The position numbers and the translations under genes were made by a program. From the sequence record PP763253.1: 64,000 nt of DNA. One strand, 5' to 3'. A model generated the notes under the pieces. The model saw only the letters and a list, made by a program, of their open reading frames with translations, had not been told where the DNA came from and searched no databases. The stretch is from Acinetobacter phage Ab1-TPeters. The stretch's first letter is position 1; every line of letters starts with the position of its first letter. Positions 2,951 through 62,066 of the stretch are shown here, piece after piece.

Positions 2951-2967
2951 AACAGCTGTTTAAAGTG
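2951..2967 (+). promoter_or_regulatory. motif-2 palindromic element AACAGCTGTTTAAAGTG
   Basis: 55 nt upstream of the SSB-like gene. Confidence 0.45.
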
Positions 2968-3021
2968 CGGATGAACCGTAAACGTAACATTATCTCTTAT
3001 ATATTTAGTTTGGATTAAACC

Positions 3022-4014
3022 ATGAATTTAGATAAATTGAAAGCAATCACAAATAAACTAAGTGAAGAGCAACAGAAAAGTGGCGGTGACAATAACAATG
3101 GTGAATGGCCTGTAGTCTGTTTTCCACCTGAAGGTGTCACACGTGGTCGTTTTATTGTAGACCCAACTGGTGAGCTTTACGAAAAGTACTACAACTATGG
3201 CTACTTCAATAAAGGTATCCGTGATCCTGAGACTCTTGATCCTAAAGAGCTACCTGAACACTTCCACAATCGTCTCGGTGAACTGGCTAAGACATTGTCT
3301 AAAGATCATATGAAGTTCTCACGTGGTCGTAAGACTTCATTCTTAGTTTACTTCTATGTTACTTCAACTGACATTAAAGACGAGAAATTCAAACCGAATA
3401 CACTTGTTTGTCTAGTTGGTGACGGTCGTTTCGCTAATGCATTCAATGATGTTCTTCAATCATTAATGAAAGATGCTGCTGATAAATTGTTGAACTCTCT
3501 ATCTCCAGATAAGAAAGGTCCAATTATGGAAATCAACATTGTCCGTGGTACTCAGGGCAAGTGTGTTATTAGCCCTACTTTCTCTGAACTTGATCCTTTG
3601 GTTACTTTAACTGAAGAAGAACAAGCTCTTCCTGATGATCAACGTCAGAAATTAATTGCTGAAAAATTAGCTCCTCGTGGATATAAACCACTATCGATCT
3701 CTTATATTAAGCCTGGCTTCCAACAAGATAAGTATGATCGATTGGTTACTGAATATCAAGCTGAGCTAGATGAAATCATCGCTAAGAAGAAAGCTAAGGC
3801 TGGTGAAAATCCAGATCCTCAACCTGAATCTCAAGGTCAAGATCAAGCTGAACCTGCTCAAGAACAGAAAGCTGAAGAGCCTAAAGTTAGTGAAGCAGTT
3901 CCTGCAGAGTCAACTCCAGCTGTGAGTGAAACTCCTGCGGAATCAGTTTCTGAACCTAAGGTTTCAGAGCCAACTGCTACAGAAAATCCATTCGCTAAAT
4001 ACAAACGTAACTAA
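3022..4014 (+). CDS. putative ssDNA-binding protein (gp32-like)
   Basis: 330 aa with an aromatic-rich core and a long acidic, Pro/Glu-rich C-terminal tail ('PDPQPESQGQDQAEPAQEQKAEEPK'), as in phage SSBs. It follows a motif-2 promoter-like element and precedes an RNase H/FEN gene and a terminator. Confidence 0.45.
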   Translation: MNLDKLKAITNKLSEEQQKSGGDNNNGEWPVVCFPPEGVTRGRFIVDPTGELYEKYYNYGYFNKGIRDPETLDPKELPEHFHNRLGELAKTLSKDHMKFSRGRKTSFLVYFYVTSTDIKDEKFKPNTLVCLVGDGRFANAFNDVLQSLMKDAADKLLNSLSPDKKGPIMEINIVRGTQGKCVISPTFSELDPLVTLTEEEQALPDDQRQKLIAEKLAPRGYKPLSISYIKPGFQQDKYDRLVTEYQAELDEIIAKKKAKAGENPDPQPESQGQDQAEPAQEQKAEEPKVSEAVPAESTPAVSETPAESVSEPKVSEPTATENPFAKYKRN

Positions 4015-4018
4015 TAAG

Positions 4019-4047
4019 ATGAGGGGCTATATGCCCCTTTTCTTTTG
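4019..4047 (+). terminator. rho-independent terminator (GAGGGGC-TATAT-GCCCCTC + TTTTCTTTT)
   Basis: Perfect GC stem plus a T-run after the SSB-like gene. Confidence 0.7.
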
Positions 4048-4058
4048 GACTTGAATAA

Positions 4059-4892
4059 ATGAACATTATTGATGGAAACTGGTTAGTTCTTAGAAACTTC
4101 CATAAATGCGGTAGACCTCAGGATGAATCTGAACTCTTTAACAGTGTCTTAGGTTCGTTATTGAAGTACATTAAAGAATACGGTTATGAAAATAAATTAG
4201 TTGTAGCTTGGGATAATGGCAAGTATCGTTACCGATCAGAAACAAACGGTATTGCGTATAAAGGTGACCGAAGCTATGATGAATCTTTCCAGTGTGCTTG
4301 GAACACGATGGTCAGGCTTAGAGAATCACTACCTAGCTTAGGCATCCCTTGTCTTCATTTCCCAGGAGTTGAAGCAGATGATATTGGTTACTTCTTTGCA
4401 CATCATCCTAAATTTAAACGTGTAAGTAAAAAGCTGATTTGTAGTGATCTTGATTGGTTAATAAGCGTTACTGAAGACACTTTAGTTTATCGACCACTAC
4501 CGCAAGGTCTTGAAATCTACTCTGATTCAGTGCTGGAGGAGCAGTATCAATTAGAACATTATTCTGATTTCTTACTTTATAAAGCGATTAATGGTGATGC
4601 GTCAGACTCAATCCCAGGTCTTACTGGATCACATAGCAAAATTAAAACTTATTTAGAGGCTTATAAGCTGTCTAAAATAGAAGATGAAGAGATTCTTAAG
4701 AAAATTGAGAATAATATTCACTTAATGAGGCTGGATAGAATTGTTGATGATGAAGAGGTATGTGAAGCCTTAATCGAACAATTCTACCGCAAACCAACTA
4801 AAATTCCATTATCATTCATTTTACCTCCTAATTATCCAGTTTACTTTAATGGAATGATTAAGAAATATATGAAGTGTCAAGGATTAGCGTAA
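4059..4892 (+). CDS. 5'-3' exonuclease / flap endonuclease (T4 RNase H-like, FEN family)
   Basis: The N-terminal 'IDGNWLVLRNFH' is PIN-like. 'INGDASDSIPGLTG' matches the H3TH motif GDxSDNIPGVxGIG of Pol I-type 5' nucleases. Confidence 0.7.
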   Translation: MNIIDGNWLVLRNFHKCGRPQDESELFNSVLGSLLKYIKEYGYENKLVVAWDNGKYRYRSETNGIAYKGDRSYDESFQCAWNTMVRLRESLPSLGIPCLHFPGVEADDIGYFFAHHPKFKRVSKKLICSDLDWLISVTEDTLVYRPLPQGLEIYSDSVLEEQYQLEHYSDFLLYKAINGDASDSIPGLTGSHSKIKTYLEAYKLSKIEDEEILKKIENNIHLMRLDRIVDDEEVCEALIEQFYRKPTKIPLSFILPPNYPVYFNGMIKKYMKCQGLA

Positions 4893-7699
4893 TGTCTAAA
4901 ATCGTAAATTATACTCGTTTCTTAAATACAGCTGATATCCATATTCATGAATTTGTTCGTAATAACAAAGATAACTTCCGACTTGAGCAGTTCATTGGAC
5001 TAGCTCATCGGATGGTTGAAATCGGGAAGCAAACTGACACGAAAGCTCTGCTTATTGACGGTGACTTTGTTGAGTACGCAGTTCACAACCCTTTAGTAGC
5101 GCACTACACTTCCCAGTTTTTGCAGATTATTTGTGATGGTTTTGAATACGTAGGTTACGTTCTAGGTAACCACGACATTAATAGTAAGCAAGACAATGAA
5201 CACTTTGAGAACTCCGTAATTCCTTTACTGTTTCCAGAAGGAAAAGGTGAGTATTTGCATGAAAAAGTCTTCACTCTAAAGAATGGTAAGACTATAGCAT
5301 TTAGTAACTGGGTGCCTGAACAGAAGTGGGAATTCTTTGAAGGTCAAGTTGATGTAATGATCGGTCACATGTGCATTAGTAATCAGTTTGGTCAGGAATA
5401 TGACCCAACTCGATATAAGCTAGGCATCTTCGGTGATATTCACCATGCTCTTGAGTATGATAACGGACGAACTTGGACAGTAAACGTTCCTATTCCAAAT
5501 AAGTTAGGTGACGAGCAGAACGGTTCAGTGTTACTTCTTGACACTGACAAAATGTCTTGTGAGCGTATTCTTACTGAGTCTGAAAACTTCAAATATATGA
5601 AGATGTTCTATGAAGACTCAGTTCCTGAAGAAGATAAAGATAATCCTTACCTGTTCACTGTCAAACGTGCTTCTAAAGAAGTTGAAGGTGCTAAAATGCA
5701 CTTCAATGTTAAAGCTGAGTTGAACTTAGAATCAGTTATTGAGAATGTAGTTTTAGCTGGCGGATTTACTAAAATTCACCAGGAAGTTAAGACTAATTTC
5801 TTAAATGAAGCTGACTGCACACCTCTTGACTTCCAGTTTAACTTGAAGAAGATAGCTGTAGAGAACTTTCGTTCAATTGGATCATTTGAATATGAATTCC
5901 AAGATGGCTTACTCTGGATAAATGGTGAAATCGGTAGTGGTAAATCATCTCTTCTGAAAGCATTAAATTATGTTCTTACTAATAATGAAGAACCACGTGA
6001 TTGTTTGAAAGAAGGTGAGAAATCACTTCGAGTTGACCTTGAACTGGAATATCAAGGTCGTTTACATCGAATTGAGCGTAAATGGAGTGGAGGTCAATCT
6101 CTTAATTACTGGATTGACGGAGTTCCTGTTCATGGATCTAGTATTAAAGATCGATCACACATGCTTAACCAGAATCTTCCTTGGATTTCTCGATTCAACC
6201 TACTTTACCGTAGTCAAATGAGCCCTGGGCTTTTGTCTCAGTTTAGCTTCAATGACCGTATCAATCTTATCTCAGATATTCTGGGATTAAACACTATCAG
6301 TGCTTATTTAGATGCAGCTAAACGTTACATGGACGATAAATTCCGTGAATTAAAAGTTCATCAGAATGAGATTGAAATCCATGAACGAGTTTTACAAAGT
6401 CATGAAAATTTTGATGCTGAGAAGCTAGCTGAGTTACAGCAGATCGATTTTGAAGCTGCTAAGTCTGATCTTCAATCACAAAAATCTGAATTAAAGTCAA
6501 AGCTTCAAGCTATTCAGAATAAGAAATATCTAGTTCGTGAGGTTCAAACAGTAGAATCATCTATTGGTGAAGCTCCAACTTGTGAGATTTCTGAATCTGA
6601 GTTTAAGGAAGCTGAGCAAAGAATTCAAGAAGGTGAGGAAGTAAAAAGCCTTATCTCAATGGATATTGAAGCTATTAAGACAGAGATTTCAACTGCTAAA
6701 TCTGATCTATCTAACGCTGACAAACAGATTGCTGTGGTGAAATCTGGGTTAAGTTCACTAAAAGACAATTGTCCTACTTGTGGACATGATCTAGATATTG
6801 AAAGTAACAATAAGATCCGTCAGAACAGTGAGGCTCAAATTAATGAGCTAGCTGAAGCTAAATCTCACATCCAGAGCTTTATTTCTGAGAAAGAAGCTGA
6901 ACTGAATAAGACCAATAAAGACTACGAAGAAGCAGTAGCTTTATCTGAGACGTTTAGACAGAAGTTTTTCAAATATCGTGATTTCACGAAACAGGTTGAA
7001 ATTCACAATAAGCAAGTTGAAAAGTTAAATCAGCTAAAATCAAATCTTGACGCTGATTTAACTGACTTGAGTGAAGAAAGCAATCTTGAAAGTTCTCTAG
7101 CTGAAGTGGATTCTAATCTAAATATGCTAAGCAGAATGGAAGGTGAATACGACCAGCTCCGGAAGGTAGAGAATGCGATTAAGGAGAGTAAAGAGAAAAT
7201 CGAATCAAGCAAGAAGATTATTTCTGAACTTGAGATCGAGGCTAATCTATCTAGAAAGTACTACTCAATCTTCACTAATACTGGAGAAGTCACCTCTCTT
7301 ATCTTCAAGTCAGTCGCAGAGATTATGAGTGATGATCAACTTCAAGTGACAACTGTTCGTCAGTTAGCTTCAGGTGAAACTCGAATTGACTTTGATGTTG
7401 AGTTCAAGGTAGATAATATCTGGATGAAGTATAATAAGTTATCAGGTGGCCAGATGGGTCTAGCTGATTTGTTCTTCTTGAGTAAACTACTTAAGATGAG
7501 TAATGGCGCTGGGTTATTAATTCTGGATGAATCATTGGCTCATATTTCGGCAACTATGTTAGATGTAGCTATTGAAGAAATTCAAACTGTTCCAGCTAAC
7601 TTAGTTATATTCGTAACTCACGTTGCTTCATTCCCTCATTATAATTTCAAGATTGATGCCTATCGTGAAGCTAACACTACTCGTTACGTGGTAAACTAA
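4892..7699 (+). CDS. fused SbcD-SbcC (Mre11-Rad50-like) nuclease-ATPase
   Basis: The N-terminus carries all five calcineurin-type phosphoesterase motifs (DIH, GD, GNHD, GH, GDIHH). It is followed by a Rad50 Walker A 'GEIGSGKSSL', a long coiled coil with a CxxC zinc hook 'CPTCGH', the ABC signature 'LSGGQMGLADL' and a Walker B 'LLILDE'. Start moved to the ATG at 4892, which overlaps the upstream stop as taATG. Confidence 0.75.
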   Translation: MSKIVNYTRFLNTADIHIHEFVRNNKDNFRLEQFIGLAHRMVEIGKQTDTKALLIDGDFVEYAVHNPLVAHYTSQFLQIICDGFEYVGYVLGNHDINSKQDNEHFENSVIPLLFPEGKGEYLHEKVFTLKNGKTIAFSNWVPEQKWEFFEGQVDVMIGHMCISNQFGQEYDPTRYKLGIFGDIHHALEYDNGRTWTVNVPIPNKLGDEQNGSVLLLDTDKMSCERILTESENFKYMKMFYEDSVPEEDKDNPYLFTVKRASKEVEGAKMHFNVKAELNLESVIENVVLAGGFTKIHQEVKTNFLNEADCTPLDFQFNLKKIAVENFRSIGSFEYEFQDGLLWINGEIGSGKSSLLKALNYVLTNNEEPRDCLKEGEKSLRVDLELEYQGRLHRIERKWSGGQSLNYWIDGVPVHGSSIKDRSHMLNQNLPWISRFNLLYRSQMSPGLLSQFSFNDRINLISDILGLNTISAYLDAAKRYMDDKFRELKVHQNEIEIHERVLQSHENFDAEKLAELQQIDFEAAKSDLQSQKSELKSKLQAIQNKKYLVREVQTVESSIGEAPTCEISESEFKEAEQRIQEGEEVKSLISMDIEAIKTEISTAKSDLSNADKQIAVVKSGLSSLKDNCPTCGHDLDIESNNKIRQNSEAQINELAEAKSHIQSFISEKEAELNKTNKDYEEAVALSETFRQKFFKYRDFTKQVEIHNKQVEKLNQLKSNLDADLTDLSEESNLESSLAEVDSNLNMLSRMEGEYDQLRKVENAIKESKEKIESSKKIISELEIEANLSRKYYSIFTNTGEVTSLIFKSVAEIMSDDQLQVTTVRQLASGETRIDFDVEFKVDNIWMKYNKLSGGQMGLADLFFLSKLLKMSNGAGLLILDESLAHISATMLDVAIEEIQTVPANLVIFVTHVASFPHYNFKIDAYREANTTRYVVN

Positions 7700-7782
7700 A
7701 TGAAAATAGCTAAAATTGTTGGTTGGATTTTATTTTACTGCTTTTGTTTTTACTTAGGTAGGCTAAGTAATGAATAACAAAT

Positions 7783-7808
7783 AGGGAGCTTCGGTTCCCT
7801 ATTTTTAT
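7783..7808 (+). terminator. rho-independent terminator (AGGGAGCTTCGGTTCCCT + ATTTTTAT)
   Basis: After the SbcCD fusion gene. Confidence 0.65.
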
Positions 7809-7840
7809 CGTACTTTAAACGAATAAAAACTCCGAGAAGC

Positions 7841-7875
7841 TGTCCCTTATCGATTCTTAAAACCTGTTAAGTTGT
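7841..7875 (+). promoter_or_regulatory. motif-1 variant (..TTCTTAA-AACCTGTTAAGTTGT + GC hairpin)
   Basis: Degenerate first half-site. Upstream of 7927. Approximate coordinates. Confidence 0.35.
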
Positions 7876-7926
7876 GGGCGGGTTGGTTCGCTCCGTTGTT
7901 CTGTTATTTTACTGTGAGATACAATT

Positions 7927-8358
7927 ATGTCTATGACTATGGTTAAATTCGATTTAGCAAATTTCTTCAAAAATGCTAACCAAGCTGATATCGAAATGGC
8001 TAACAAACTTCTGTCAGTTCCATCAAATGCAATTTACTTCGATTTCGGAATTGAAGATGAATCCGCTTTAGCTTGGGACGCTGATTACCGTTTCATTGTA
8101 GAACAGGGTCAAACATTGCTGATTGAAGAAGGCCAGACTGCTTGCAGTGGTAGTGGTCATTCTCGAGTAGCTACATACAATGCTAACAAGATTGTTAAAA
8201 TGGAATGTGATGATAAGAAGACAGTTCTTAAAGCGTTAGCTTGCAAAACCCCAGACAGCTTTGAGCTAGAGTTTATTGATGATGATATGGATGAGAAAGA
8301 TCTGGATGATCTTACAGAAGCTCTTATGGCTTTGACAGAGTTCGTTGAAGTAAGATAA
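7927..8358 (+). CDS. hypothetical acidic protein
   Basis: 143-aa ORF with an Asp/Glu-rich C-terminus. Preceded by a motif-1-like element and followed by a hairpin. Confidence 0.45.
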   Translation: MSMTMVKFDLANFFKNANQADIEMANKLLSVPSNAIYFDFGIEDESALAWDADYRFIVEQGQTLLIEEGQTACSGSGHSRVATYNANKIVKMECDDKKTVLKALACKTPDSFELEFIDDDMDEKDLDDLTEALMALTEFVEVR

Positions 8359-8380
8359 GCTGAAACTCCCAAATGGCTCT

Positions 8381-8397
8381 AACAGCTGTTTGGGAGA
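8381..8397 (+). promoter_or_regulatory. motif-2 variant AACAGCTGTTTGGGAG inside hairpin CTCCCAAA..TTTGGGAG
   Basis: Upstream of the topoisomerase large-subunit gene. Confidence 0.35.
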
Positions 8398-8442
8398 GAC
8401 CGCCTTATGTCGGTATAATACTAACTTTACATGGTGTAAATT

Positions 8443-10422
8443 ATGTCTAATGAGATTAAAATCCACAAGTTGGAGTTTCCTGAAAACGTTCGTCAATTGA
8501 CGGGGATGTACCTAGGTGTTACAGATAACTTCACAACTCCGCTTCGTGAGATTATCAACAACGCTACAGATGAAATGTTAAACGGTCACGCTAACTGGAT
8601 TGACATCATCAATAAAGACACTCACAAAATGGTCATTGATAATGGTCGTGGCTTACCTGTCTACGTTGACCCAGATGAGCCTGAGAAGACAATCGCTCAT
8701 ACTACGATCACCTCACTTCACTCTGGCTCTAAATTTGTTGAATCGTCTGAAATTACTTCAGGTATCCATGGTTTAGGTGCGTCAGCTACATCTGCTGTAT
8801 CAACTAAATATTATATTGCGGTAAATCTCAAGAAGAAAGATATATCTACGACTTTACCGTGGATTCAAGAAGCTGCTAAGTCTCTTGAAAATCCGATTTA
8901 CCTGTTATGTTGTAAGCAAGGTTACTTTGTTGAGGACATGGTTCTCGATGGTGTTCAACAGCTTTCTGAATACGTCTCAAATGAAGAAGTTCGTCCTGAT
9001 TTCTCAACAGCTATCTACTTTGAGCCTGATACTGAGATCTATACTTCAGGTAAAGCTTCAGTAAGTTTACTTCCACTTCAAATTATCTTAGCTCGCAAAG
9101 ATGGTCTGGAAATCAACGTAAACGGCAATCTGATCGAGAAGTTTGACTTCAATAAAGAAGTAGCGAAAGGTGCTAAGTTATTCTTAGATGAAAAGGTTGA
9201 CTTTGAATACCGCTTCAATTCTCAGTTAACAGTATCTGGTTCAATTGGTTACGATAACGACCATGCCAGCTACAACAACGTTACCTTGATCAACTTGATT
9301 GAGAATACACAAGGTGGCTTTCTTGAACGTCGAATCTGCACTGCTCTTGGTCAGGCACTTTCTGCTATCAATAACGCTATCCAACCAGCTGATGCTAAGA
9401 TTGGTTTAATTCTGTTCAATAGCTCGTTCTCTTCATATAAGATGTCATTCTCCTCTCAGACTAAAGAGAAGTTGACTAATCTGGGTGAGACTTCACTTGA
9501 GCAAGTTAAGAAACGCTTACTGGCTAACGGTGTTTCAGAAAGCGAAGTTGATGCTGAAGCAGGTAAGACTTACTTGTATGAAAATCACTTCGTAGCTGGG
9601 TTACGTGATTACTTCATTGAGCTTATTAAGAAGAATCGTGAGTACTTTGATGCAATCATCTCGAAGATCATTGAGTATAAGCGTGCTCTGAATAAACTAT
9701 CTAACCAGGACTTCTTGAAGTCTAAGTTGATTATGGGTGACTCAGATCGAGATCGTGCCCGTCAGTCAGCTGAGATGGCTAAAGTATATGAAGCTCGCTC
9801 TCGTAAGTTTGCTGAGCGTGAACTGTACGTTACGGAAGGTTTATCTGCATCTGGTCACTTGATTAAGTATCGGAATAAAGACACTCAGTCAGTTCTTCCA
9901 CTTCGTGGTAAGATGAAGAACTCTATTAATATGGACTCGGTTGATCTTGTTGAGAATGGTGAGTTACTTGCTATTATCAATACAATTGGTTGCGGTATTG
10001 GATCACTTACAGATGTATCGAAGTCACGTTATGGTAAGATCATTATCTGTACAGATGCCGATTCAGATGGTCTTCACATCAGTAACTTGATCTTGGCTGT
10101 CTTCTTGAAGCACTGCCCAGAGTTAATTGAAGCTGGAATGTTGTATAAGCTTGAGACTCCATACTATGTAGTTGACGGCAATAAATACTTCTACTATCAT
10201 GAGAAAGACCAGATTGATTTTGAGAAATCTAAAGTTGAGAAACGTAAAGGTCTAGGTGCGTACACTCCTGAAGAAGCTAAGAAATTCATGTTATCTAAAG
10301 ATCGTCGACTAGTCCAAATCGTTATGGATGAAGATGAGGAAATCTTGAAAGAAGCTGAAACTCTTCTGTTCTCACCTAACTCGCGTAAGCAATTAATGAT
10401 CGATCTTGGTATTCTGGCGTAA
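8443..10422 (+). CDS. DNA topoisomerase II large subunit (GyrB-like ATPase + TOPRIM; T4 gp39-type)
   Basis: GHKL ATPase motifs 'EIINNATDE' and 'GIHGLGASA', plus TOPRIM motifs 'YVTEGLSASG' and 'CTDADSDGLHI'. Confidence 0.75.
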   Translation: MSNEIKIHKLEFPENVRQLTGMYLGVTDNFTTPLREIINNATDEMLNGHANWIDIINKDTHKMVIDNGRGLPVYVDPDEPEKTIAHTTITSLHSGSKFVESSEITSGIHGLGASATSAVSTKYYIAVNLKKKDISTTLPWIQEAAKSLENPIYLLCCKQGYFVEDMVLDGVQQLSEYVSNEEVRPDFSTAIYFEPDTEIYTSGKASVSLLPLQIILARKDGLEINVNGNLIEKFDFNKEVAKGAKLFLDEKVDFEYRFNSQLTVSGSIGYDNDHASYNNVTLINLIENTQGGFLERRICTALGQALSAINNAIQPADAKIGLILFNSSFSSYKMSFSSQTKEKLTNLGETSLEQVKKRLLANGVSESEVDAEAGKTYLYENHFVAGLRDYFIELIKKNREYFDAIISKIIEYKRALNKLSNQDFLKSKLIMGDSDRDRARQSAEMAKVYEARSRKFAERELYVTEGLSASGHLIKYRNKDTQSVLPLRGKMKNSINMDSVDLVENGELLAIINTIGCGIGSLTDVSKSRYGKIIICTDADSDGLHISNLILAVFLKHCPELIEAGMLYKLETPYYVVDGNKYFYYHEKDQIDFEKSKVEKRKGLGAYTPEEAKKFMLSKDRRLVQIVMDEDEEILKEAETLLFSPNSRKQLMIDLGILA

Positions 10423-10438
10423 TAAGGAACAAATTAAA

Positions 10439-11698: not shown

Positions 11699-11706
11699 TC
11701 ACAATG

Positions 11707-11742
11707 GACTGGGTCATTAAGGCTCAGTCCACTTTTATTTTA
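11707..11742 (+). terminator. terminator-like hairpin (GGACTGGGTCATTAAGGCTCAGTCC + ACTTTTATTTTAT)
   Basis: After the topoisomerase genes. Confidence 0.55.
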
Positions 11743-11757
11743 TCTGGAGTATTTATA

Positions 11758-54229: not shown

Positions 54230-54237
54230 GATCCGTC

Positions 54238-54270
54238 AGCTCTTGATTCCGGTCAAGAGCTTTTTATTTT
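54238..54270 (+). terminator. rho-independent terminator (AGCTCTTGATTCCGGTCAAGAGCT + TTTTATTTT)
   Basis: After the TS-fold gene, before the HD gene ATG. Confidence 0.65.
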
Positions 54271-54296
54271 GTAATAAACAACGTAAGAGAAATGTA

Positions 54297-55926: not shown

Positions 55927-56644
55927 GGCCATGCTGACCTCGATCTTCAACTTTCCTGAGGAGTTTCGAGTAACTTCGAACCCTCGACCTAGAAAGGGGT
56001 TGTTCATTGGTAGTATCAATAAATGTGCACGTTATCTTCTAATTGCAATGAAAGTACCTAAGCAGTTAAATGGTATTAATGTAGTTTACTTAGAAAACGT
56101 TCAGATGTCTTCTAACGCTGATTATATCGTTAGCATGGGCAATGAGATTGAGAATGTCATGAGACGACATTTGAAATATCGTAAAGTGCCAATCCATGCA
56201 GATCAAATGCAGATAACTGAACTGGACGGTAAGATCAGAGGATTCCTTGACTTCGGTGTTGAAGTTGAAGGAATTGGTATGATTATTATTGATGCCAAGG
56301 GAATGAGTGAATCTGTATTTGCTCGATTCACTGCTGCAGCAACTTTGCTGGATTTCAAAGAAGATTACTTCTATCAGGTTCTTCATTACATCAATTCAGT
56401 TAAGCTAGAATATGGCTATATTGTTGGTGTTAATAGATCAACTGGGCAAGTTGCGGTTAAGGAAGTTTCTCGAGCTAAATACCAAGACTTATATAATAAG
56501 TCAATGGAACGTAGCAAGAAAATAATTGTTACTCCTATTGAAGAGTATCATACTCTTGAAGCTGCACCAGATAATGAATGTACTCAATGTGAATTCGTAT
56601 CTGCGTGCCGCCCAGAATTTTACGCCAGTTTAGGTGTAAATTGA
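55913..56644 (+). CDS. putative PD-(D/E)xK nuclease with C-terminal Cys cluster (Cas4/RecB-nuclease-like)
   Basis: 'GIGMIIIDAKG' resembles the (D/E)xK core. C-terminal 'ECTQCEFVSACRP' is a Cx2Cx5C cluster, as in Cas4-type FeS nucleases. Confidence 0.4.
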   Translation: MNPREAMLTSIFNFPEEFRVTSNPRPRKGLFIGSINKCARYLLIAMKVPKQLNGINVVYLENVQMSSNADYIVSMGNEIENVMRRHLKYRKVPIHADQMQITELDGKIRGFLDFGVEVEGIGMIIIDAKGMSESVFARFTAAATLLDFKEDYFYQVLHYINSVKLEYGYIVGVNRSTGQVAVKEVSRAKYQDLYNKSMERSKKIIVTPIEEYHTLEAAPDNECTQCEFVSACRPEFYASLGVN

Positions 56645-56647
56645 GAT

Positions 56648-56665
56648 CAACAGCTGTTTAATTTG
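56648..56665 (+). promoter_or_regulatory. motif-2 core (CAACAGCTGTTTAATTTG)
   Basis: Upstream of the DEAH helicase. Confidence 0.45.
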
Positions 56666-56689: not shown

Positions 56690-58375
56690 ATGATTCCTGT
56701 GAGTGAATTGCTAGACGAAGTGGTTTCTACTTATTGTCCTGACTTTGTCTTCCGTCCAAATCAACGTGAATGTGTTATTGCAATTCTAGATAACTTCATT
56801 AATAAAGGTCAGAAATTTGTTTTACTTAATTCTGACACTGGTACTGGTAAATCTTGGATTGCTTGGTTAGTTGGTATGTGTGTAAACACATTTGAACGAA
56901 TTAACTCAGCAACTGAGGAGGAAGCTAAGGAAGTAAACAGTTTGTATCTTACTAAGACAATCAGTCTTCAGCATCAGTATCACCATGACTTTAAGAATAT
57001 GAAGTTGCTTAAGTCAGCTTCAAATTACTCGTGTCATACAACTGAATCTTTGCCGATTAATCCTAAACTCAAAGTTCATGAAAGTTGTATGTTTACAAGA
57101 GACTCTGGTCAATGTTTATATTCTCGAGCTAAAAGTGACTTTAATCGTTCAGATATGAGACTTCTCAATTATGCTTATTTCCTAGCTTTCCAGCGTAATT
57201 CAATTAGTCCTATGTCAAGTACACTGCTGGTAGTGGATGAAGCACACACTCTTCCGTCTTACTTAATCGATTTTAGTTCAATTGAACTAAACTTTGATAT
57301 TCTGTCAAAACATGCTGCAATGACTAAAGATGTCAAAGATTATTTCCCTCTTGGACATTTTCACCGTAGCGATTTTCTTCAAACAGAAGACTTGAAGAAA
57401 ATTCTGGATTACTGTTTTGATGCTTCATCTGATTTAGATGAGAGAATCATGTCAGTTATGGATGAGATGGAAGGAGCTTCTGGTCATTCAGTAGCTGAGT
57501 TGATTGAAAGATCTCTTAAACCTTTAAATGCAGCTTCAAACTATTTCACTGATCTTGGTGGTAAACTTTACCTTATGCTAAACTCAACTAACCCTGATAA
57601 CTGGGTTCAAGAGAAATGTACAGTAGAGCTCCAGACTAAGACTAATGAAATCTTTGAATTTAAATCGCTTGAAGTTGATTCTACCATGCTTAACATTATT
57701 CATGAGAACTCAAAATATGTTCTTTTGATGTCAGGTACTTGTGGTCGTTTAATCAAAGACTTAAATATCGGTGAAGATAACGTAGCTGTCATGTCTAGTC
57801 CTTATGTATTCCCAATTGAGAATCGTCCATTCATCTCGATGTCTGACTTGCCTCCATTGAACTATAGCACTCGAGATACAGTTATTCCAAACTACTTGAA
57901 GCGTATTGATGAACTTCTGGACATGATGCCAGATGACTCAGGCTTAATTCACTCAGTAAGCTACACGAATGCCAACTATATAAAAGAGAATAGCCGACAT
58001 AAGAATCGAATTTACATTCCTAATAAGGAAGAACTTCGAGATATTAAGTCAGTTGTTCAGAAAGGACGAGTTCTTATCTCTCCAGCTATGATTGAAGGTA
58101 TTGACCTTAAAGGCGATGCTGCTAACTTCCAAATCTTCATTAAAGTTCCATATCCTTCACTTGGGTCTAAATGGATGAAGAAGAAAGTTAAAATGGATCA
58201 AGACTGGTACAATTTTGAAACTTTAGTCTCAATTCAACAAGGATCAGGTCGTGCTATTCGTTGTGCTGAAGACGTTGCAGTAACGTTTATGCTAGATCCA
58301 GCTTTCCGTTCACTTTACCAGAAAACCAAACAGTATATCCCTAGTTGGTTTGATAAAACTATTGTATGGAATTAA
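56690..58375 (+). CDS. SF2 DEAH-box DNA helicase (DinG/Rad3-like)
   Basis: Walker A 'DTGTGKSW' and Walker B 'LVVDEAHTLPS'. 561 aa. Preceded by motif 2. Confidence 0.55.
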   Translation: MIPVSELLDEVVSTYCPDFVFRPNQRECVIAILDNFINKGQKFVLLNSDTGTGKSWIAWLVGMCVNTFERINSATEEEAKEVNSLYLTKTISLQHQYHHDFKNMKLLKSASNYSCHTTESLPINPKLKVHESCMFTRDSGQCLYSRAKSDFNRSDMRLLNYAYFLAFQRNSISPMSSTLLVVDEAHTLPSYLIDFSSIELNFDILSKHAAMTKDVKDYFPLGHFHRSDFLQTEDLKKILDYCFDASSDLDERIMSVMDEMEGASGHSVAELIERSLKPLNAASNYFTDLGGKLYLMLNSTNPDNWVQEKCTVELQTKTNEIFEFKSLEVDSTMLNIIHENSKYVLLMSGTCGRLIKDLNIGEDNVAVMSSPYVFPIENRPFISMSDLPPLNYSTRDTVIPNYLKRIDELLDMMPDDSGLIHSVSYTNANYIKENSRHKNRIYIPNKEELRDIKSVVQKGRVLISPAMIEGIDLKGDAANFQIFIKVPYPSLGSKWMKKKVKMDQDWYNFETLVSIQQGSGRAIRCAEDVAVTFMLDPAFRSLYQKTKQYIPSWFDKTIVWN

Positions 58376-58376
58376 A

Positions 58377-58742
58377 ATGATTCATCATAACTTAACGATT
58401 CTTGAGGGAGCGATTATTAAAGTAGAGCAGTGTTTTAGTAACACTGTCTCTCTTTCTCAAGAAAACAAATCAAATCCTATCTTACGTAAGATTAACCTTA
58501 ATAGAAATGGATTTATTCTAACTCCTAAAACTACAGTGCATATTCAAGTTGGATTTGATTATGACTACTGTGCTTACCATTTAAATGATGTGAAGCCATC
58601 TAAAGCAGTTCGTGAAAGTAATTTAATTTTAAATAATTTTTACGTAGATGAAGGAAAGACGTTTGTAACTGTAACTAATATGAATTCTTCTAATTCTGTG
58701 AGACTAGAACCTGGTGAGGTTTTAGGCTCTATAATGATGTAA
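58377..58742 (+). CDS. hypothetical protein
   Basis: Track 58350. The ATG just after the helicase stop is the likelier start. Confidence 0.4.
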   Translation: MIHHNLTILEGAIIKVEQCFSNTVSLSQENKSNPILRKINLNRNGFILTPKTTVHIQVGFDYDYCAYHLNDVKPSKAVRESNLILNNFYVDEGKTFVTVTNMNSSNSVRLEPGEVLGSIMM

Positions 58743-58757
58743 AAAGCTGTTTAATAA
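58741..58757 (+). promoter_or_regulatory. motif-2 core (AAAAGCTGTTTAATAAA)
   Basis: About 22 nt upstream of the DNA polymerase start. Confidence 0.45.
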
Positions 58758-58778
58758 AAGAAGTGTAAGGAAAACGTA

Positions 58779-61700
58779 ATGACCAAATTTTTGACTGACT
58801 TGACTTTACAAGATCAGGCTGTTTTTATTCTGTTATCTCAAACCAACAACTCAAGAGCATTTGAGAATGGTTATGCTGCTGACTTCTTAAATTTTGTTAC
58901 TATTAACTCTCCTCATCGAATTGGTTATGTTGAAATTACCAATGAAAATGAAGAGCATGTTCTTAATCAAGAAGAAATTTCTAAGTTGAAAGATTTAGTT
59001 GGAAACCGTAAGGTTATTCTTTTAGGTAAGAACACAGTAAAAGCAATTGCTGGTGAGTTGATTAACAACCGAGTTCGTTATTTATCTTTGTTGGATATGT
59101 CATACTTGACTTGTGCTAACTTAGGTAAAGTAGCGATTTGTGGTCACCCAATGTCTTACAAAGACGTCTTTAAAGGAAATGTTGATGCTCAACAGAAACT
59201 TATTCTACGTGTTGATGAGTTAATTCAGCCACGTGCTAAAGAATATGAAGTTGAAATTGTAGCTCCCTCACTGGACGATCTTGAAGACATCTTAAATCTA
59301 TGTGCCAATCAACCAGCCATTGGTTACGACATTGAAGCAAACGATTTAGATATTTGGGCAGCTCACTGGGAAAAGAACTTATTTAGTCTGTCAGTGTTCG
59401 AATCAGAATCTAAACTTATGTCATTCTGGTTTAACTGGCGTGAATTTACTTCGGATCATAAGAGATTATTTGAAAATTTCTTAGATAAGAATCAGTCTAA
59501 AATTTGGACTTACAACTGTACATATGAAATCCAAGCAGCTTGGAGAGTCTTCGGTAAACGTTACTTATTTCAAGATGCTTTGATCTTAACTACTATGGAT
59601 GCTAACCGTGGTGATCTTAAGACTAACGCTCGTAAGTATTTGAAATGTGATTTCTGGGAAGATGAGCTAGCGAGTATTCGTGATGTTTATGAAGCCTTTT
59701 TCAAATTATTCTTAGATAAAGGTAAAAAGAATTCAATACATGATGAGTTCAAAGCTTTTGTTAAATCAGATCAATTCCAGAATTTAGATAATCTTCGTGA
59801 GTTTCTGATTTCTAAGGGTAGAAAACCAGAATGGATGAATGATATTAATGATTTAGCAGTTGCTTTAGGTGAAGATGAAGTAGTCAAAGGTATCTCTGAA
59901 TTTCCATATCAGTGGTCAGCAGTTCCATTCGACATTTTAGGTAAATACTGTTGTTACGATTCAGCTTACACTCTGCCAATTGCAGCTAAACTGTACGGTA
60001 AGTATGAGAAAGGATATAAACATTACATCAAACACCCTTGGTTAGCTTGTATCTTTGAAGCATGGGGATGTGGTTGGGATGAATCTAAAGCTAAGGAAGT
60101 TGAGAAAGATTATTTACGTTTGATGAATGAATCTCTAAGTGAATTGATCTTAAATCTTCAACCTAAGTTAGGTCTTCGAGCTCTAGATGTTAAACCGATT
60201 CTTCAGTGGAAATTACCACATGAGGCTACTTCATACACAGCTACAGGTAAAGAACGTAAACATAAGGTGTTGTCTGAGTACGATCGTCATGGTTGGATTA
60301 AAGGTATTTACAATCCTGGTTCAAACACGGCTGATGCTCGAGCTGTATTCTGGGATGTTTACTTAACAGAACGAGTTGAGTTAGCAACATTTGCATATAC
60401 TCTTGTCAATGATCTTCGATTCAGAGGAATCTGGGAGAAGTTACTGATTAAGATGATTGAAATGACAGAGTTCAAGTCTAAAGATGAAAGTAAGACTGAG
60501 AACGAATTCTTAACTGAATATGGTGCAGCTCAAGTTCTTGAAATGTTGTCAGTATTCTTAGAAAATCCAAATTTAACTGATCGTGAGACAGTTAAGATCT
60601 TGGCTTCTAGTTTCACTGAGACGAATAAGACCTATAAAGACAATACTGGACGTAACGCTAAAGAAGTAATGGCAGCTCAGTATGAGATTCAATGTCAATT
60701 CTTTGGTGTTGACATTGATGATGAATCTACTTGGACTCCTGAATTCAAGATTCTATTCTTACTTCAGAAATATAAGAAAGTAGCGAAAGCTCTGTCTACT
60801 TATGTTAATGGTAAGTTAGGTCGAGGATGTGTATGGTTGTCTAAAGTATTTCCAGATCGTCCTCCAGTTCGATTGAAACCTTATCATGAGGTTGAGGAAG
60901 GATATAAACTTAAACTTGATGAGAAGTTAATTGCATTCTATGACTTTAATAGTTTGTCTGCATCAACTCACCGTTGGGGATCTGGATTCCATACTATTAG
61001 CCCAGGTGTAGCTATCCGCAGTGCTTTAGTTCCGTACTACAGCAATCAGATCTGGACTCATATTGACTTTAGTCAGGCTGAGTTGGTGATGTTGGCATTC
61101 TTCAGTCAAGACCCTAACATGATTAAAGTATTCATGGAAGGTGGAGATATGCACAGATATGTAGCTAGTCTAGTGTATCAGAAGAAGCCTGAGGATGTTA
61201 CTTCAGAAGAACGTCGTGTAGCTAAGACAGTATCATTTGGTATTGTTTACGGTAAGGGTATTGAGAACTTAGCTCTAGAAATCACTGGAGGTGATGTTCC
61301 TCGTGCTCAAGCAATTTTCGATGCTTTCTTCGTGTCATTCCCTGGAATCAAGAAATGGATGGATGAGCGTAAGACTCAAGGTCGTGAAACAGGTAAGGTG
61401 ACTAATCTGTTTGGTGCATTGATTGAGGTGGAAGATGGCTTCAGTAAAGGTAACGCTATTGATCGTCACTCAGTAAACTACCCAATCCAGTCTTCATCTT
61501 CAATGGTTGCTGGTGGTTCAATGTACGACTTGTGTTCTACAGTTGACCAACAAGGAATCTTTGGAACTGGAGTTGGATTCGTGCACGATGCATTAGATCA
61601 TACAGTTGATATCGACAATCTGGTTAACTTCTTAGTTTATTCTAAGAAAGTGATGCAGGATCAAGTTTATGAAGAACTTGGTACTCCGATGAAGATTGAC

Positions 61701-61988
61701 CAAGAGATTGGTGCGACAGCTCTAGACTTATGTGAGCTGAAGAGCTTCACTGAACTTGAAAATGGTTTAGAAATCATTCTCGGAGGTGACGAAGAGGCTG
61801 TAAATAAACTGGTTGACAAGTTTAGAGTAGAGAGTGCTAAGTACGTTATTGACAACACTGAAATCATTGACAGTTCAGACTCATATACATCTTGGGAAGG
61901 ATTGTTTACTGAGAAAGGTGCATATAGTTCAGATCGTGGTCAAACGTTAAAGAAAGTTAAGACTAAAGTGACTCTTCGCTATAGTTAA
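58779..61988 (+). CDS. family A DNA polymerase (Pol I-like, with 3'-5' exonuclease domain)
   Basis: Exo I 'YDIEAN'. Motif A 'IDFSQAELVMLAFFS' (DYSQIELR). Motif B 'RRVAKTVSFGIVYGKG' (RxxxKxxxFGxxYG). Motif C 'VHDAL' (VHDE). Preceded by motif 2; a hairpin terminator follows. Confidence 0.8.
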   Translation: MTKFLTDLTLQDQAVFILLSQTNNSRAFENGYAADFLNFVTINSPHRIGYVEITNENEEHVLNQEEISKLKDLVGNRKVILLGKNTVKAIAGELINNRVRYLSLLDMSYLTCANLGKVAICGHPMSYKDVFKGNVDAQQKLILRVDELIQPRAKEYEVEIVAPSLDDLEDILNLCANQPAIGYDIEANDLDIWAAHWEKNLFSLSVFESESKLMSFWFNWREFTSDHKRLFENFLDKNQSKIWTYNCTYEIQAAWRVFGKRYLFQDALILTTMDANRGDLKTNARKYLKCDFWEDELASIRDVYEAFFKLFLDKGKKNSIHDEFKAFVKSDQFQNLDNLREFLISKGRKPEWMNDINDLAVALGEDEVVKGISEFPYQWSAVPFDILGKYCCYDSAYTLPIAAKLYGKYEKGYKHYIKHPWLACIFEAWGCGWDESKAKEVEKDYLRLMNESLSELILNLQPKLGLRALDVKPILQWKLPHEATSYTATGKERKHKVLSEYDRHGWIKGIYNPGSNTADARAVFWDVYLTERVELATFAYTLVNDLRFRGIWEKLLIKMIEMTEFKSKDESKTENEFLTEYGAAQVLEMLSVFLENPNLTDRETVKILASSFTETNKTYKDNTGRNAKEVMAAQYEIQCQFFGVDIDDESTWTPEFKILFLLQKYKKVAKALSTYVNGKLGRGCVWLSKVFPDRPPVRLKPYHEVEEGYKLKLDEKLIAFYDFNSLSASTHRWGSGFHTISPGVAIRSALVPYYSNQIWTHIDFSQAELVMLAFFSQDPNMIKVFMEGGDMHRYVASLVYQKKPEDVTSEERRVAKTVSFGIVYGKGIENLALEITGGDVPRAQAIFDAFFVSFPGIKKWMDERKTQGRETGKVTNLFGALIEVEDGFSKGNAIDRHSVNYPIQSSSSMVAGGSMYDLCSTVDQQGIFGTGVGFVHDALDHTVDIDNLVNFLVYSKKVMQDQVYEELGTPMKIDQEIGATALDLCELKSFTELENGLEIILGGDEEAVNKLVDKFRVESAKYVIDNTEIIDSSDSYTSWEGLFTEKGAYSSDRGQTLKKVKTKVTLRYS

Positions 61989-61989
61989 T

Positions 61990-62030
61990 TAAGATTGGGA
62001 TTCTTCGGAATCCCGATTTTTAGGGCAGTT
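61990..62030 (+). terminator. terminator-like hairpin (GGGATTCTTCGGAATCCC + GATTTTTAGG)
   Basis: Directly after the DNA polymerase stop. Confidence 0.6.
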
Positions 62031-62049
62031 TGAAACTCGCAAATGAGTC

Positions 62050-62066
62050 TAAAAGCTGTTTCTTAG
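62050..62066 (+). promoter_or_regulatory. motif-2 core (AAAAGCTGTTTCTTAG)
   Basis: After the polymerase terminator; merges into a motif-1-like copy. Confidence 0.35.

Follow-up and report, generated by a model that had tools for sequence, protein, structure and literature searches.

Jumbo phages with split beta/beta' RNA polymerases have phage-specific promoter consensuses: AACA-N6-T(A/G) for the late and AAATATATATTAT-N6-G for the early promoters of AR9, and TATG for the late promoters of phiKZ (PMC5312081). These promoters have one short box, they are strand-specific and intergenic, and separate classes serve different gene sets. At AR9 late promoters transcription starts at the final base of the motif, and the template strand of uracil-containing DNA is recognised by a non-virion polymerase with a fifth, promoter-specificity subunit (gp226/gp68-like). 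The T7-group single-subunit promoters are 23 bp long and run from -17 to +6. T7 phi10 transcripts begin with a stable stem-loop, and the class II termination signal of T7 is ATCTGTT. The middle promoters of T4 combine a MotA box (consensus TGCTTtA) near -30 with a TAnnnT hexamer, and the bacterial extended -10 element is TGnTATAAT. Transcription in the RP13-like phage group is so far uncharacterised. In YerA41, a distant relative, polymerase subunits were found in virions (PMC7354516), and its published genome carries only software-predicted sigma-70 promoters (PMC9023294).

This work concerns a window of Acinetobacter phage Ab1-TPeters (PP763253.1), by which we mean the whole stretch of 64,000 nucleotides, extended by the following 8 kb. 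It contains two families of repeated elements, class A and class B. We believe class A is probably a one-strand, lineage-specific two-box promoter of about 32-36 bp that bears a downstream box and is read by the phage's multisubunit RNA polymerase. The two classes are most likely sub-classes of one promoter type that co-evolves with this enzyme. The consensus is new and apparently previously undescribed, the kind of signal is familiar, and the phages are little studied and have their own multisubunit polymerase. The searchable literature holds no description of the motif, and a text search for the motif cores returned no phage paper.

A sequence-only reading had proposed a repeated palindrome upstream of replication genes and tRNAs. 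The repeat is real and larger than first described. AACAGCTGTTTAAAGT occurs 7 times with up to 2 mismatches against 0.05 expected, and AACAGCTGTT occurs 18 times with up to 1 mismatch against 3.3 expected. The AGCTGTTT core makes up the downstream box of a longer element in fixed register, aaCTCnnAAaTgAnnnnAAnAGCTGTTTAAagt, which is our class A. A position matrix finds 16 copies in the window and 3 in the following 8 kb, 19 together. Two boxes, CTCnnAAaT upstream and AAnAGCTGTTTAAAGT(G/A) downstream, stand in a fixed, ungapped register, with CTC exactly 18 nt 5' of AGCTG in nearly all copies. About 13 of the 19 contain TAnnnT, with the TG shifted by one base, by our own reading of the copies. 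Several upstream boxes are CTCnnnnnnGAG. The information content is 30.8 bits, and leave-one-out scores range from 19.7 to 41.5 bits; in simulated sequence the best score averages 8.9 bits. Class B is CCTGTtTCTTAA-N9-AAaCCTGTTaantTGT plus a GC hairpin, with 13 copies in the window and 26.1 bits. It shares its architecture and register with class A, and the box sequences differ. With both classes taken together, leave-one-out scoring gives 19.7-56.6 bits, and the simulated maxima are 8.9 and 5.5 bits.

Strand and position are strongly biased. Matches above 15 bits number 21 on the + strand and 0 on the - strand for class A, and 14 and 0 for class B. Every class A copy lies on the coding strand, and all except one fall within the 8% of non-ORF sequence. 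Likewise 26 of the first 27 sites fall in the 8% free of + strand ORFs, and the elements at these 26 sites end 3-145 nt 5' of a start codon or RNA gene. A terminator-like hairpin lies within 110 nt upstream of 10 of 33 elements, compared with 5% for random positions. Replication, nucleotide-metabolism and DNA-modification genes and a tRNA/small-RNA cluster lie downstream of the class A sites, which in the window are:

2932..2967, + strand: class A, 54 nt before a 330-aa gene (3022..4014); ortholog copy in phage vB_AbaM_3098 at 1054
8362..8397, + strand: class A, before a topoisomerase II B-like gene (8443..10422); copies in 3098 at 6340 and in phage IME392 at 44101
13240..13275, + strand: class A, before a glycosyltransferase-like gene; its 3' end overlaps a terminator hairpin (13271-13298)
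16822..16857, + strand: class A, before a small basic ORF (ATG 16873); 3098 copy at 15992
17558..17593, + strand: class A, extended form, before a conserved 56-aa ORF (17693..17863)
18238..18273, + strand: class A, extended form, 126 nt before tRNA-Arg (18399-18475); terminator-like hairpin upstream (18196-18209)
19491..19526, + strand: class A, extended form, before a conserved 79-aa ORF (19542..19781); terminator-like hairpin upstream (19458-19473)
33943..33978, + strand: class A, ACCTGTTAAAGTGT variant, before a 219-aa gene (34020..34679); 3098 copy at 37198
39855..39890, + strand: class A, AGCTGTTAAGTT variant, before a 40-aa ORF and 40035..40508
48536..48571, + strand: class A, inside the loop of a terminator-like hairpin, AAACTCCCCTC...GAGGGGAGTTTTT
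49273..49308, + strand: class A, CGCTG variant of the extended form, before an NAD-dependent DNA ligase (49376..51217); IME392 ligase copy at 9037
52400..52435, + strand: class A, abutting the RBS (52436-52441) of a dNMP-kinase-like gene, ATG 52448
54236..54271, + strand: class A, weaker, AGCTTTTT variant, at the start of a 5'-deoxynucleotidase-like gene
56630..56665, + strand: class A, before an XPD/DinG-like helicase (56690..58375)
58723..58758, + strand: class A, before a family-A DNA polymerase (58779..61988); IME392 DNA polymerase copy at 28251
62032..62093, + strand: hybrid A/B, class-B-like anchor at 62078; terminator just upstream (61995-62016)

The copies that the sequence-only reading had named upstream of its listed genes are all present, at or near the positions it gave. 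The protein of gene 3022, which it labelled SSB-like, has no match in Pfam or PHROGs. Its extended form holds as well: 48-nt copies at 17559, 18239 and 19492 are 71-100% alike, and a variant lies at 49273. The RNA region around the first three was said to be ORF-free, which is incorrect, as the small ORFs 17693..17863 and 19542..19781 lie there and are conserved in a sister phage. Between 16800 and 20300 the only Rfam matches at the family gathering score are tRNAs. At 8362..8397 the core sits in the loop of a ACTCCCAAA/TTTGGGAG hairpin. This copy (8384) and those at 13262 and 48558 are bound up with hairpins or terminators and are possibly not active as promoters.

Class B mostly precedes small unknown genes and polymerase genes:

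7838..7877, + strand: class B with GC hairpin, downstream of a terminator (7780-7803)
21831..21870, + strand: class B, before 21900..22202
22602..22641, + strand: class B, directly before the RNA polymerase beta' C-part gene
24427..24466, + strand: class B with GC hairpin, before 24486..24968; the orthologous 3098 site at 25461 is likewise class B
36923..36962, + strand: class B with hairpin
43203..43242, + strand: class B with hairpin
44710..44749, + strand: class B
45127..45166, + strand: class B with hairpin
47508..47547, + strand: class B with hairpin
48887..48926, + strand: class B
51634..51673, + strand: class B
62142..62181, + strand: class B, before gene 62245..62824 and the RNA polymerase beta' N-part gene

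The candidate enzyme for reading these elements is encoded in two beta' parts:

22684..24207, + strand: RNA polymerase beta' C-terminal part, Pfam Rpb1_3/4/5
62831..64000, continuing to 64147 beyond the window, + strand: RNA polymerase beta' N-terminal part, Pfam Rpb1_1/2

The N-terminal part is homologous to an IME392 ORF (16457..18025) that matches Rpb1_1/2, and the same domains are listed for the gene in L001. The C-terminal part matches bacterial beta' in the PDB with E = 4e-31, and its best 60 PDB matches include no AR9 or phiKZ chain. It is 78.5% identical to its counterpart in 3098, 49% in IME392 and 39% in RP13. The beta' relationship to AR9 is distant, 29.8% identity over 43% of the query. 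No beta subunit genes were located in the sequence examined, the window showed no gene for a single-subunit polymerase, and no candidate tested had a Pfam match to a sigma factor. A conserved 417-aa all-alpha protein encoded near the polymerase genes has no significant match. A phmmer search with AR9 gp226 against six-frame ORFs of the 72 kb, 3098, the complete IME392 and 50 kb of RP13 returned nothing at E <= 10; members of this family become too divergent to recognise by sequence, so one may still be present.

The sister Acinetobacter phage vB_AbaM_3098, whose proteins are 45-79% identical to those of our phage, has elements of both classes at orthologous genes. Its copies precede the orthologs of the 330-aa and 219-aa genes, the topoisomerase, three ORFs (the small basic one and those of 56 and 79 aa) and tRNA-Arg, and the class, A or B, is identical at orthologous sites. 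In this footprinting comparison, CTC, AAT and AAnAGCTGTTTA are kept and the flanks have diverged. The deposited 3098 genome is apparently incomplete, and all its proteins are annotated as hypothetical. The E. coli phage IME392 has a diverged version, aaCCGCTCTTTT-N8-cgAAAGGCTGTTAAagTGT, in 25 copies. Every one of them is in the early/replication arm, on its coding strand, and the structural arm has 0; they include sites 5' of the DNA polymerase, topoisomerase and ligase. The Ralstonia phage RP13 has another, AACGACkCTAT-N9-AGACCTTGTAAG, on the + strand only. A k-mer count over the first 50 kb of YerA41 found no such over-represented motif. The DNA of several relatives has been reported to be sequencing-resistant. 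The relatives' genomes are about 110-170 kb, and some have hypermodified thymidine rather than uracil (PMC12686479).

The consensus thus varies with the phage and polymerase lineage and not with the host (3098, IME392, RP13 and L014; beta' 78%, 49% and 39%). This drift is the pattern known from phage-polymerase promoters. Our phage would belong to the "RP13-like" myoviruses with a split bacterial-type multisubunit polymerase, several of which are reported or annotated with hypermodified thymidine. The polymerase, probably virion-delivered, together with a putative specificity factor, would read the element. The RBS begins 15-18 nt past the anchor at 52422 and at 66463 (in the 8-kb extension), and 16 nt past it at IME392 61181; any start site of those genes should therefore lie no further than about position 14, and 52400..52435 is the tightest constraint. 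Initiation would occur at or just past the conserved T-(G/A), about 13-14 nt past the A of AGCTG, which would place the element at about -31 to +1. Genes for replication, nucleotide metabolism and DNA modification would be driven by class A, as would the tRNA/small-RNA cluster. Class B would drive mostly small unknown genes and the polymerase genes, with a GC hairpin at the transcript start. The position of class B 5' of the polymerase genes means that a pre-made (virion) polymerase or the host polymerase is needed.

The elements are like the AR9 and phiKZ promoters in being strand-specific and intergenic, in having a phage-specific consensus alongside split beta/beta' polymerases (the reading enzyme here being the presumed one), in forming separate classes for different gene sets, and in having a conserved block that probably extends to the start site. 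They differ in sequence, and instead of one short box they have two boxes about 20 bp apart in a fixed register. The polymerase here is also more like bacterial beta', and a homologue of AR9 gp226 is undetectable. The AR9 consensus AACA-N6-T(A/G) had been given correctly in the sequence-only reading (PMC5312081), but it fits only 5 of the 19 copies and is not enriched: in 72 kb it occurs 60 times on the + strand and 59 on the - strand against 65 expected. At the AACA position 8 copies have AAAA, and of the 19 third bases 10 are A, 6 are C and 3 are G. The fit is coincidental.

The likeness to the T7 group lies in a long, highly conserved, many-copy consensus that drifts between related phages along with the polymerase and is often sited after a terminator, and class B transcripts would, as predicted from their sequence, start with a stem-loop like those of T7 phi10. 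The two-box layout is unlike the T7 group, and the enzyme family is unrelated because beta' genes are present here. T4 middle promoters also serve replication and nucleotide-metabolism genes and tRNAs. Here too an upstream box stands near -30 to -37 along with a TAnnnT-like hexamer, and AGCTGTTTA is loosely similar to the MotA box. Unlike T4, there is a conserved block between box and hexamer, the phage has its own polymerase, and the consensus differs among phages whose hosts share sigma-70. The downstream box in IME392 and class B contains TGT-TAAAGT or TGT-TAAGTT, which resembles the extended -10. Unlike an extended -10, it has additional invariant flanks on either side, class A is off register by one base, and the RBS positions favour a start nearer the box.

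It is important to consider whether host RNA polymerase reads these sites, with sigma-70 acting on an extended -10 (TGn-TAnnnT) either alone or remodelled by the phage as by T4 AsiA/MotA. The downstream box fits TGn-TAnnnT in TGTTAAAGT, TGTTAAGTT and TGTTAAATT (IME392, class B and part of class A), and CTC lies 23-25 nt 5' of the hexamer, the place of a -35 or MotA-type box, so a sigma-70-family holoenzyme could read it. Three class A copies contain TTGAnn-N17-TAcAAT, among them 16822..16857 (TTGAGT-N17-TACAAT) and 17558..17593 (TTGACC-N17-TACAAT). The first expression of the phage polymerase genes, which lie behind class B, also needs a pre-existing enzyme. However, AAnAGC, CTC and the upstream box, which hold most of the conserved information, lie outside the sigma-70 contacts, and the consensus shifts with the phage lineage though the hosts share a sigma-70 consensus. 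The class A TG is one base off register, the TTGAnn/TAcAAT pairs are absent at the orthologous copies in 3098, which infects the same host species, and sigma-70-type sites number 47 against 53 expected. A start 5-8 nt past the hexamer would fall in or beyond the RBS at 52422, 66463 (extension) and IME392 61181. We consider a host promoter unlikely. We also rejected TTGACA-N16-18-TATAAT as the conserved part, since 3-4 of 19 copies fit, the fit is lost in 3098 and there is no enrichment. Two earlier claims are supported: that this is an intergenic, strand-specific signal of promoter-like kind 5' of replication and nucleotide-metabolism genes and tRNAs, and that it probably belongs to the phage's own transcription system and not to host sigma-70.

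The element could also act in RNA, as a pause or terminator for the phage polymerase or as a site of polycistronic processing. The CTGTT core is similar to ATCTGTT, copies are located just past stop codons, terminator hairpins with T-runs overlap the copies at 13262 and 48558, and in 3098 a T-run comes after AGCTGTTTAgatatcTAAACAGCT at the 11435 site. Such signals, however, need no conserved, fixed-register upstream box 18 nt away. RNAalifold predicts 0 pairs and no consensus fold for 24 copies from two phages, and ordinary hairpin terminators already exist, usually upstream of the element and not downstream. One copy lies within an ORF, 293 nt ahead of the next gene, and three serial copies each stand 5' of an RNA or small gene. 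A role in termination or processing seems to us very improbable.

The palindrome AACAGCTGTT, perhaps with the upstream CTC-N6-GAG, could instead be an operator bound by a dimeric phage regulator, a repressor or activator of neighbouring promoters. The cores are perfect 10-bp palindromes in 6 of 19 copies, CTCnnnnnnGAG recurs in the upstream boxes and the placement is promoter-proximal. A symmetric site would not require the single orientation seen throughout, however, and the symmetric core positions 3 and 8 do not covary. Conservation runs asymmetrically into TTTAAAGT, and CTC-N6-GAG is lost in 3098. The palindrome is missing from class B (AAAACCTGTT), IME392 (AAAGGCTGTT) and RP13. The palindrome, which had been taken for the functional unit, is incidental, and we give an operator very little credence.

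An AR9-type late promoter, along the lines of the sequence-only reading, would have its template strand recognised by a non-virion polymerase that carries a fifth subunit like gp226. This would find agreement in AACAGCTGTTTA, which matches the published consensus (PMC5312081), in the distantly related split beta' genes, and in a start near the box end (giving an AR9-like tetranucleotide, then N6-7 and T-purine), but it is scarcely credible when the relatives carry AAAGGCTGTTAA or AGACCTTGTAAG and the IME392 and RP13 versions never fit, when the bases conserved here are the unconserved N6 of AR9 and the upstream box is absent from AR9 promoters, when no gp226 homologue appears at E <= 10 and bacterial beta' is the nearer match of the beta' part (4e-31), and when the copies serve replication, nucleotide metabolism and tRNAs and not late genes (25 of 25 in the non-structural arm of IME392).

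Returning to a two-box promoter read by the phage polymerase, a consensus at 25-35 copies per genome arm is a ready map of transcription units. The copies are also in vitro templates for a polymerase that resembles bacterial beta' more than those of AR9 and phiKZ do. They offer a way to ask how, and with which factor, a multisubunit polymerase finds its promoters, possibly on heavily modified DNA. There is practical interest as well, since vB_AbaM_3098 is under development as a therapy against A. baumannii. A bolder version, which we hold only tentatively, is that the -31 to +1 promoter is ancestral to a whole clade and is read by a virion-delivered split polymerase with an unrecognised specificity subunit. 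Its T-rich core CTGTTTAA would perhaps depend on hypermodified thymidine, and the sub-classes would form an immediate-early/replication switch. The clade would comprise this phage, vB_AbaM_3098, E. coli IME392/EP_H11 and Ralstonia RP13. If true, phage multisubunit polymerases would have a third way of recognising promoters, beside those of phiKZ and AR9.

The two motifs had been described as separate promoter classes. They are distinct, but they are not independent, as they share architecture and register and stand in tandem before one gene (62032-62181). At the hybrid 62032..62093 the class A downstream box, AAAAGCTGTTTCTTAG, is also the upstream box of the class-B-like element. The relative L014 has the same layout, and the order of terminator, elements and gene is kept.

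The window is one arm of the phage genome, with 37% G+C and two tRNAs, and its + strand carries essentially all of the long ORFs. The palindromic motif that a sequence-only reading had picked out upstream of replication genes and tRNAs is real: AACAGCTGTTTAAAGT occurs 7 times with up to 2 mismatches versus 0.05 expected, and the 10-mer named in that reading 18 times with up to 1 mismatch versus 3.3 expected. Its length was underestimated, as the true element proves longer when the copies are aligned on AGCTG. This element, class A, consists of CTC, AAaT(G)A, 4 variable bases and then AAnAGCTGTTTAAagt, with CTC exactly 18 nt 5' of AGCTG in almost all copies. Scanning with a position matrix gives 16 copies in the window plus 3 in the next 8 kb, a continuation (contig L001 of the Logan assembly; coordinates marked ext) whose overlap with the window is exact. 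Leave-one-out scores run from 19.7 to 41.5 bits, versus a mean of 8.9 bits reached by simulated 72-kb sequences, and matches above 15 bits number 21 on the + strand and 0 on the - strand. An extended form of 45-48 nt, reported for four places, is indeed present at 17559, 18239 and 19492, with a variant at 49273.

The palindrome had been presented as the key feature, and this part of the claim fails. It is perfect in only 6 of 19 cores, its two symmetric variable positions show no covariation, and the homologous boxes elsewhere are asymmetric; the AGCT symmetry is incidental. At several places the AGCTGTTT core takes part in a hairpin (window 13271-13298, 48541-48586 and 8364-8397, and 11435-11460 of L002, from the record of the sister Acinetobacter phage vB_AbaM_3098). 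The core provides the 5' arm for a terminator at 13271, sits within the loop of a long hairpin at 48558 and 8384, and in vB_AbaM_3098 lies in a perfect inverted repeat, AGCTGTTTA/TAAACAGCT, with a T-run. Such places may be promoters that overlap terminators, or else decayed copies.

A second family, class B, was first met as weaker matches of the class A matrix. It has the form aatCCTGTtTCTTAA-N9-aAAaCCTGTTnAntTGTnGGGG, with 13 copies in the window and 1 beyond, and must be the other motif of the sequence-only reading. Its box sequences are unlike those of class A but the register is common to both, C/T-T-C lying 18 nt 5' of (A/G)CCTG in class B. A GC-rich hairpin directly 3' of class B has a mean folding energy of -9.2 versus -5.9 kcal/mol in controls (p = 0.001), and a 5' hairpin after class A does not differ from background (p = 0.9). 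The idea that the boxes are direct repeats of one unit is convincing only in class B (CCTGTT twice, 24 nt apart) and is not significant elsewhere.

The two motifs had been proposed to govern gene sets that do not overlap. They are distinct sequence classes, and class is kept between the sister phages. However, one gene is preceded by a tandem series at 62032-62181, made up of a class A element, a hybrid and a class B element, in which the class A downstream box AAAAGCTGTTTCTTAG doubles as the class B upstream box. The gene sets therefore meet, and both motifs are variants of a single architecture. Class A is found ahead of the topoisomerase, the ligase, the kinase/thymidylate-synthase/nucleotidase genes, the primase-like and nuclease-like genes, the helicase, the DNA polymerase, the sugar-nucleotide genes and the tRNA cluster. 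Class B is found ahead of the RNA polymerase genes and mostly small ORFs without known function. As a pattern of gene content this would suit an early versus delayed-early split.

The relatives can be ordered by the C-part of beta' of the split phage RNA polymerase, which is 78.5% identical in vB_AbaM_3098, 49% in the E. coli phages EP_H11 and IME392 and 39% in Ralstonia phage RP13. An 'RP13-like' grouping takes in these phages together with YerA41, Carin-5 and SP-15 (PMC12686479). Proteins of vB_AbaM_3098 are 45-79% identical to those of the window, and its intergenic DNA is not alignable by megablast. The matrix finds 10 convincing class A copies in this phage, each on the + strand, and 7 precede orthologues of window genes that bear class A: the 330-aa gene, the topoisomerase, the small basic ORF, the 56-aa and 79-aa ORFs, tRNA-Arg and the 219-aa gene. 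When the copies are aligned pairwise, CTC, AAT and AAnAGCTGTTTA are kept within diverged flanks. Class B in this phage reads AAGCTGTTTCTTAA-N10-AAAACCTGTTAAGGT and lies at orthologous class B positions. A 3.7-kb contig of a third relative (L014) has the same order as window 61995-62181: DNA polymerase 3' end, terminator, class A upstream box with hybrid box, class B, a second class B, and the gene. In IME392 the top over-represented 10-mer is AAAGGCTGTT, and the full element is aaCCGCTCTTTT-N8-cgAAAGGCTGTTAAagTGT. All 25 copies lie in the early/replication arm on the coding strand, none in the structural arm, and 21 are outside ORFs; they precede, among others, the DNA polymerase, topoisomerase, ligase and the orthologue of the 330-aa gene. 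Counting k-mers gave no late-promoter motif in the IME392 structural arm and no comparable over-represented motif in the first 50 kb of YerA41. The 50 kb of RP13 hold about 12 copies, on the + strand only, of an analogous element, AACGACkCTAT-N9-(c)AGACCTTGTAAG. Its upstream box AACGACTCTATAGAGA (e.g. 8975-9025 and 49238-49290 of the RP13 record, L008) resembles the T7 promoter core ACGACTCACTATAGGGAGA; the likeness is probably due to chance, and a gene for a single-subunit polymerase was not seen. Since it is found in vB_AbaM_3098, the third relative, IME392 and RP13, we conclude that a two-box signal of the same geometry is conserved across phages of Acinetobacter, Escherichia and Ralstonia, with a sequence that drifts as the polymerase diverges.

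We believe the two-box element is most likely a promoter. Of the first 27 sites found (both classes), 26 are outside ORFs although ORFs take up 92% of the + strand, and their 3' ends are 3-145 nt upstream of a start codon or RNA gene. A terminator lies upstream of 10 of 33 sites versus 5% of random positions, and a search for a common RNA fold among 24 copies predicted 0 pairs. The argument is thus one of single orientation, intergenic placement before genes and RNA genes, frequent placement after terminators, conservation of site and class, and lack of a common RNA fold. In class A the conserved sequence stops at T-(G/A), 13-14 nt past the A of AGCTG; in class B, IME392 and RP13 it stops at TGT, and the hairpins of class B start directly past this point. 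The distance from the anchor to the start of the ribosome-binding site is 15 nt at 52422, 18 nt at ext 66463 and 16 nt at IME392 61181. A predicted start near position 13-14 fits all three sites, with GCTG then at about -12 to -9 and CTC at about -31. Making TAAAGT the -10 hexamer instead, with TGn before it and CTC at -37 to -35, looks attractive on paper, but it would put the start inside or beyond those three ribosome-binding sites.

The main uncertainty is which polymerase reads the element. The genes that bear on this question are:
22684-24207, beta' C-part of the phage multisubunit RNA polymerase
62831-64147, beta' N-part of the same enzyme
25685..26938, a 417-aa protein, 73% identical to its vB_AbaM_3098 counterpart

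Reading by host sigma-70 polymerase is a poor fit. A TTGAnn-N17-TAcAAT reading can be made for 3-4 copies but is lost in the orthologous vB_AbaM_3098 copies, sigma-70-type sites show no enrichment (47 versus 53 expected), and the bulk of the conserved bases lie beyond the reading range of sigma-70. The phage encodes its own multisubunit polymerase and the sigma-70 fit is poor, so we favour the phage enzyme, which together with a putative specificity factor would recognise the element. Searched against the PDB, the beta' C-part matches bacterial beta' at 4e-31, and the best 60 matches include neither an AR9 nor a phiKZ chain. Class B lies directly 5' of both beta' genes, so either the polymerase is virion-borne or class B is read by the host polymerase; polymerase subunits have been detected in YerA41 virions (PMC7354516). 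The element is not a member of the AR9 promoter family, whose consensus, AACA-N6-T(A/G) with the last base as the start, had been given correctly (PMC5312081): only 5 of 19 copies fit, matches number 60 on the + strand and 59 on the - strand versus 65 expected, the relatives do not fit, the bases conserved here are the N6 of AR9, the genes served are not late, and no homologue of AR9 gp226, the promoter-specificity subunit, was detectable. The likeness to AR9 may be one of mechanism: a phage multisubunit enzyme that reads a box a short way from the start.

No sigma domain was recognised by Pfam in ORFs close to the polymerase genes, in structural-arm ORFs of IME392 or in the YerA41 candidates, and among the ORFs of IME392 and the window Pfam gave neither a sigma factor nor a beta subunit. 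The 'sigma factor' of the 2020 YerA41 paper is absent from the 100 kb examined of the 145.6-kb GenBank record. The 417-aa protein is a candidate accessory or specificity subunit of the polymerase. Its conservation equals that of the polymerase, and in IME392 too it lies near the polymerase genes. Among 1.84 billion representatives 29 homologues were found; the structure model is all-alpha (pLDDT 68), and there is no Pfam, PDB-sequence or significant fold match. Another candidate for an extra subunit is the 193-aa protein 62245..62824. The beta' N-part gene looks interrupted (L001 4353-6200; window 62831-64000 and beyond). A single continuous IME392 ORF is matched by two ORFs here, ext 62831-64147 and 64502-64678, and the gap of about 350 nt between them holds a 107-aa ORF; the interruption could be an intron or an inserted element.

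These motifs are not described in the searchable literature. The only promoter listing in the YerA41 genome paper is of BPROM sigma-70 predictions (PMC9023294), and the SP-15 genome paper does not mention promoters. A promoter consensus for a phage polymerase is already well known as a kind; what is new is the two-box layout, the clade in which it occurs and the combination with a bacterial-like split polymerase.

The best matches of the DNA polymerase are about 30% identical and in the same phages as those of the beta' C-part, and in a 5.8-billion-protein set the phage itself is the sole match. Megablast against the phage collection returned only tRNA-sized matches and one 157-bp stretch, and pattern and protein scans of IMG/VR found no relatives. 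Three single-copy JGI metagenome matches to a 20-base degenerate pattern lack protein similarity and are chance. The DNA of YerA41, RP13 and Carin-5 resisted sequencing; hypermodified thymidine has been demonstrated in YerA41, Carin-5 and SP-15, and RP13 is annotated with thymine modification (PMC12686479). Such sequencing-resistant DNA may be why nothing close is found in IMG/VR, the JGI metagenomes or the 5.8-billion-protein set, and why the vB_AbaM_3098 record is collinear only with window 1918..48899. That deposited genome of a therapeutic phage (PV081573.1) is 55.6 kb and labelled 'complete, circular'. It is without ligase, helicase, DNA polymerase and structural genes except a tailspike homologue. 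The assembly is almost certainly partial, which would be no surprise if this DNA, like that of some relatives, is difficult to sequence. The window has a thymidylate-synthase homologue and dNMP-kinase-like, 5'-deoxynucleotidase-like and glycosyltransferase-like genes; no homologue of 5-hmdU DNA kinase was found within the 72 kb of window and continuation.

The capsule-depolymerase-type tailspike at 29799-31820 lies in an otherwise non-structural arm. It is 51% identical to that of the Acinetobacter podovirus Acibel007, and its resemblance to vB_AbaM_3098 is confined to the N-terminal 110 residues, which suggests exchange of a receptor-binding module.

The supposed RNA-only region holds two small ORFs, 17693-17863 (56 aa) and 19542-19781 (79 aa), kept in vB_AbaM_3098 at 57% and 44% identity, and a class A element precedes each in both phages. 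Between the small-RNA cluster and the gene at 20133 lie 330 ORF-poor nt (19800-20130) with G+C-rich inverted repeats, e.g. GGGGAGTGCTCGGGATGGCGAACCACTCCC, and no significant Rfam match. The stretch from tRNA-Arg to tRNA-Met (18476-18861) matches no Rfam family and folds better than 100 of 100 shuffles (z = -3.55). Identity to vB_AbaM_3098 is 87.5% over the last 157 nt (18702-18858), next to DNA that is not alignable; a conserved non-coding RNA and a tRNA leader are both possible readings of the stretch.
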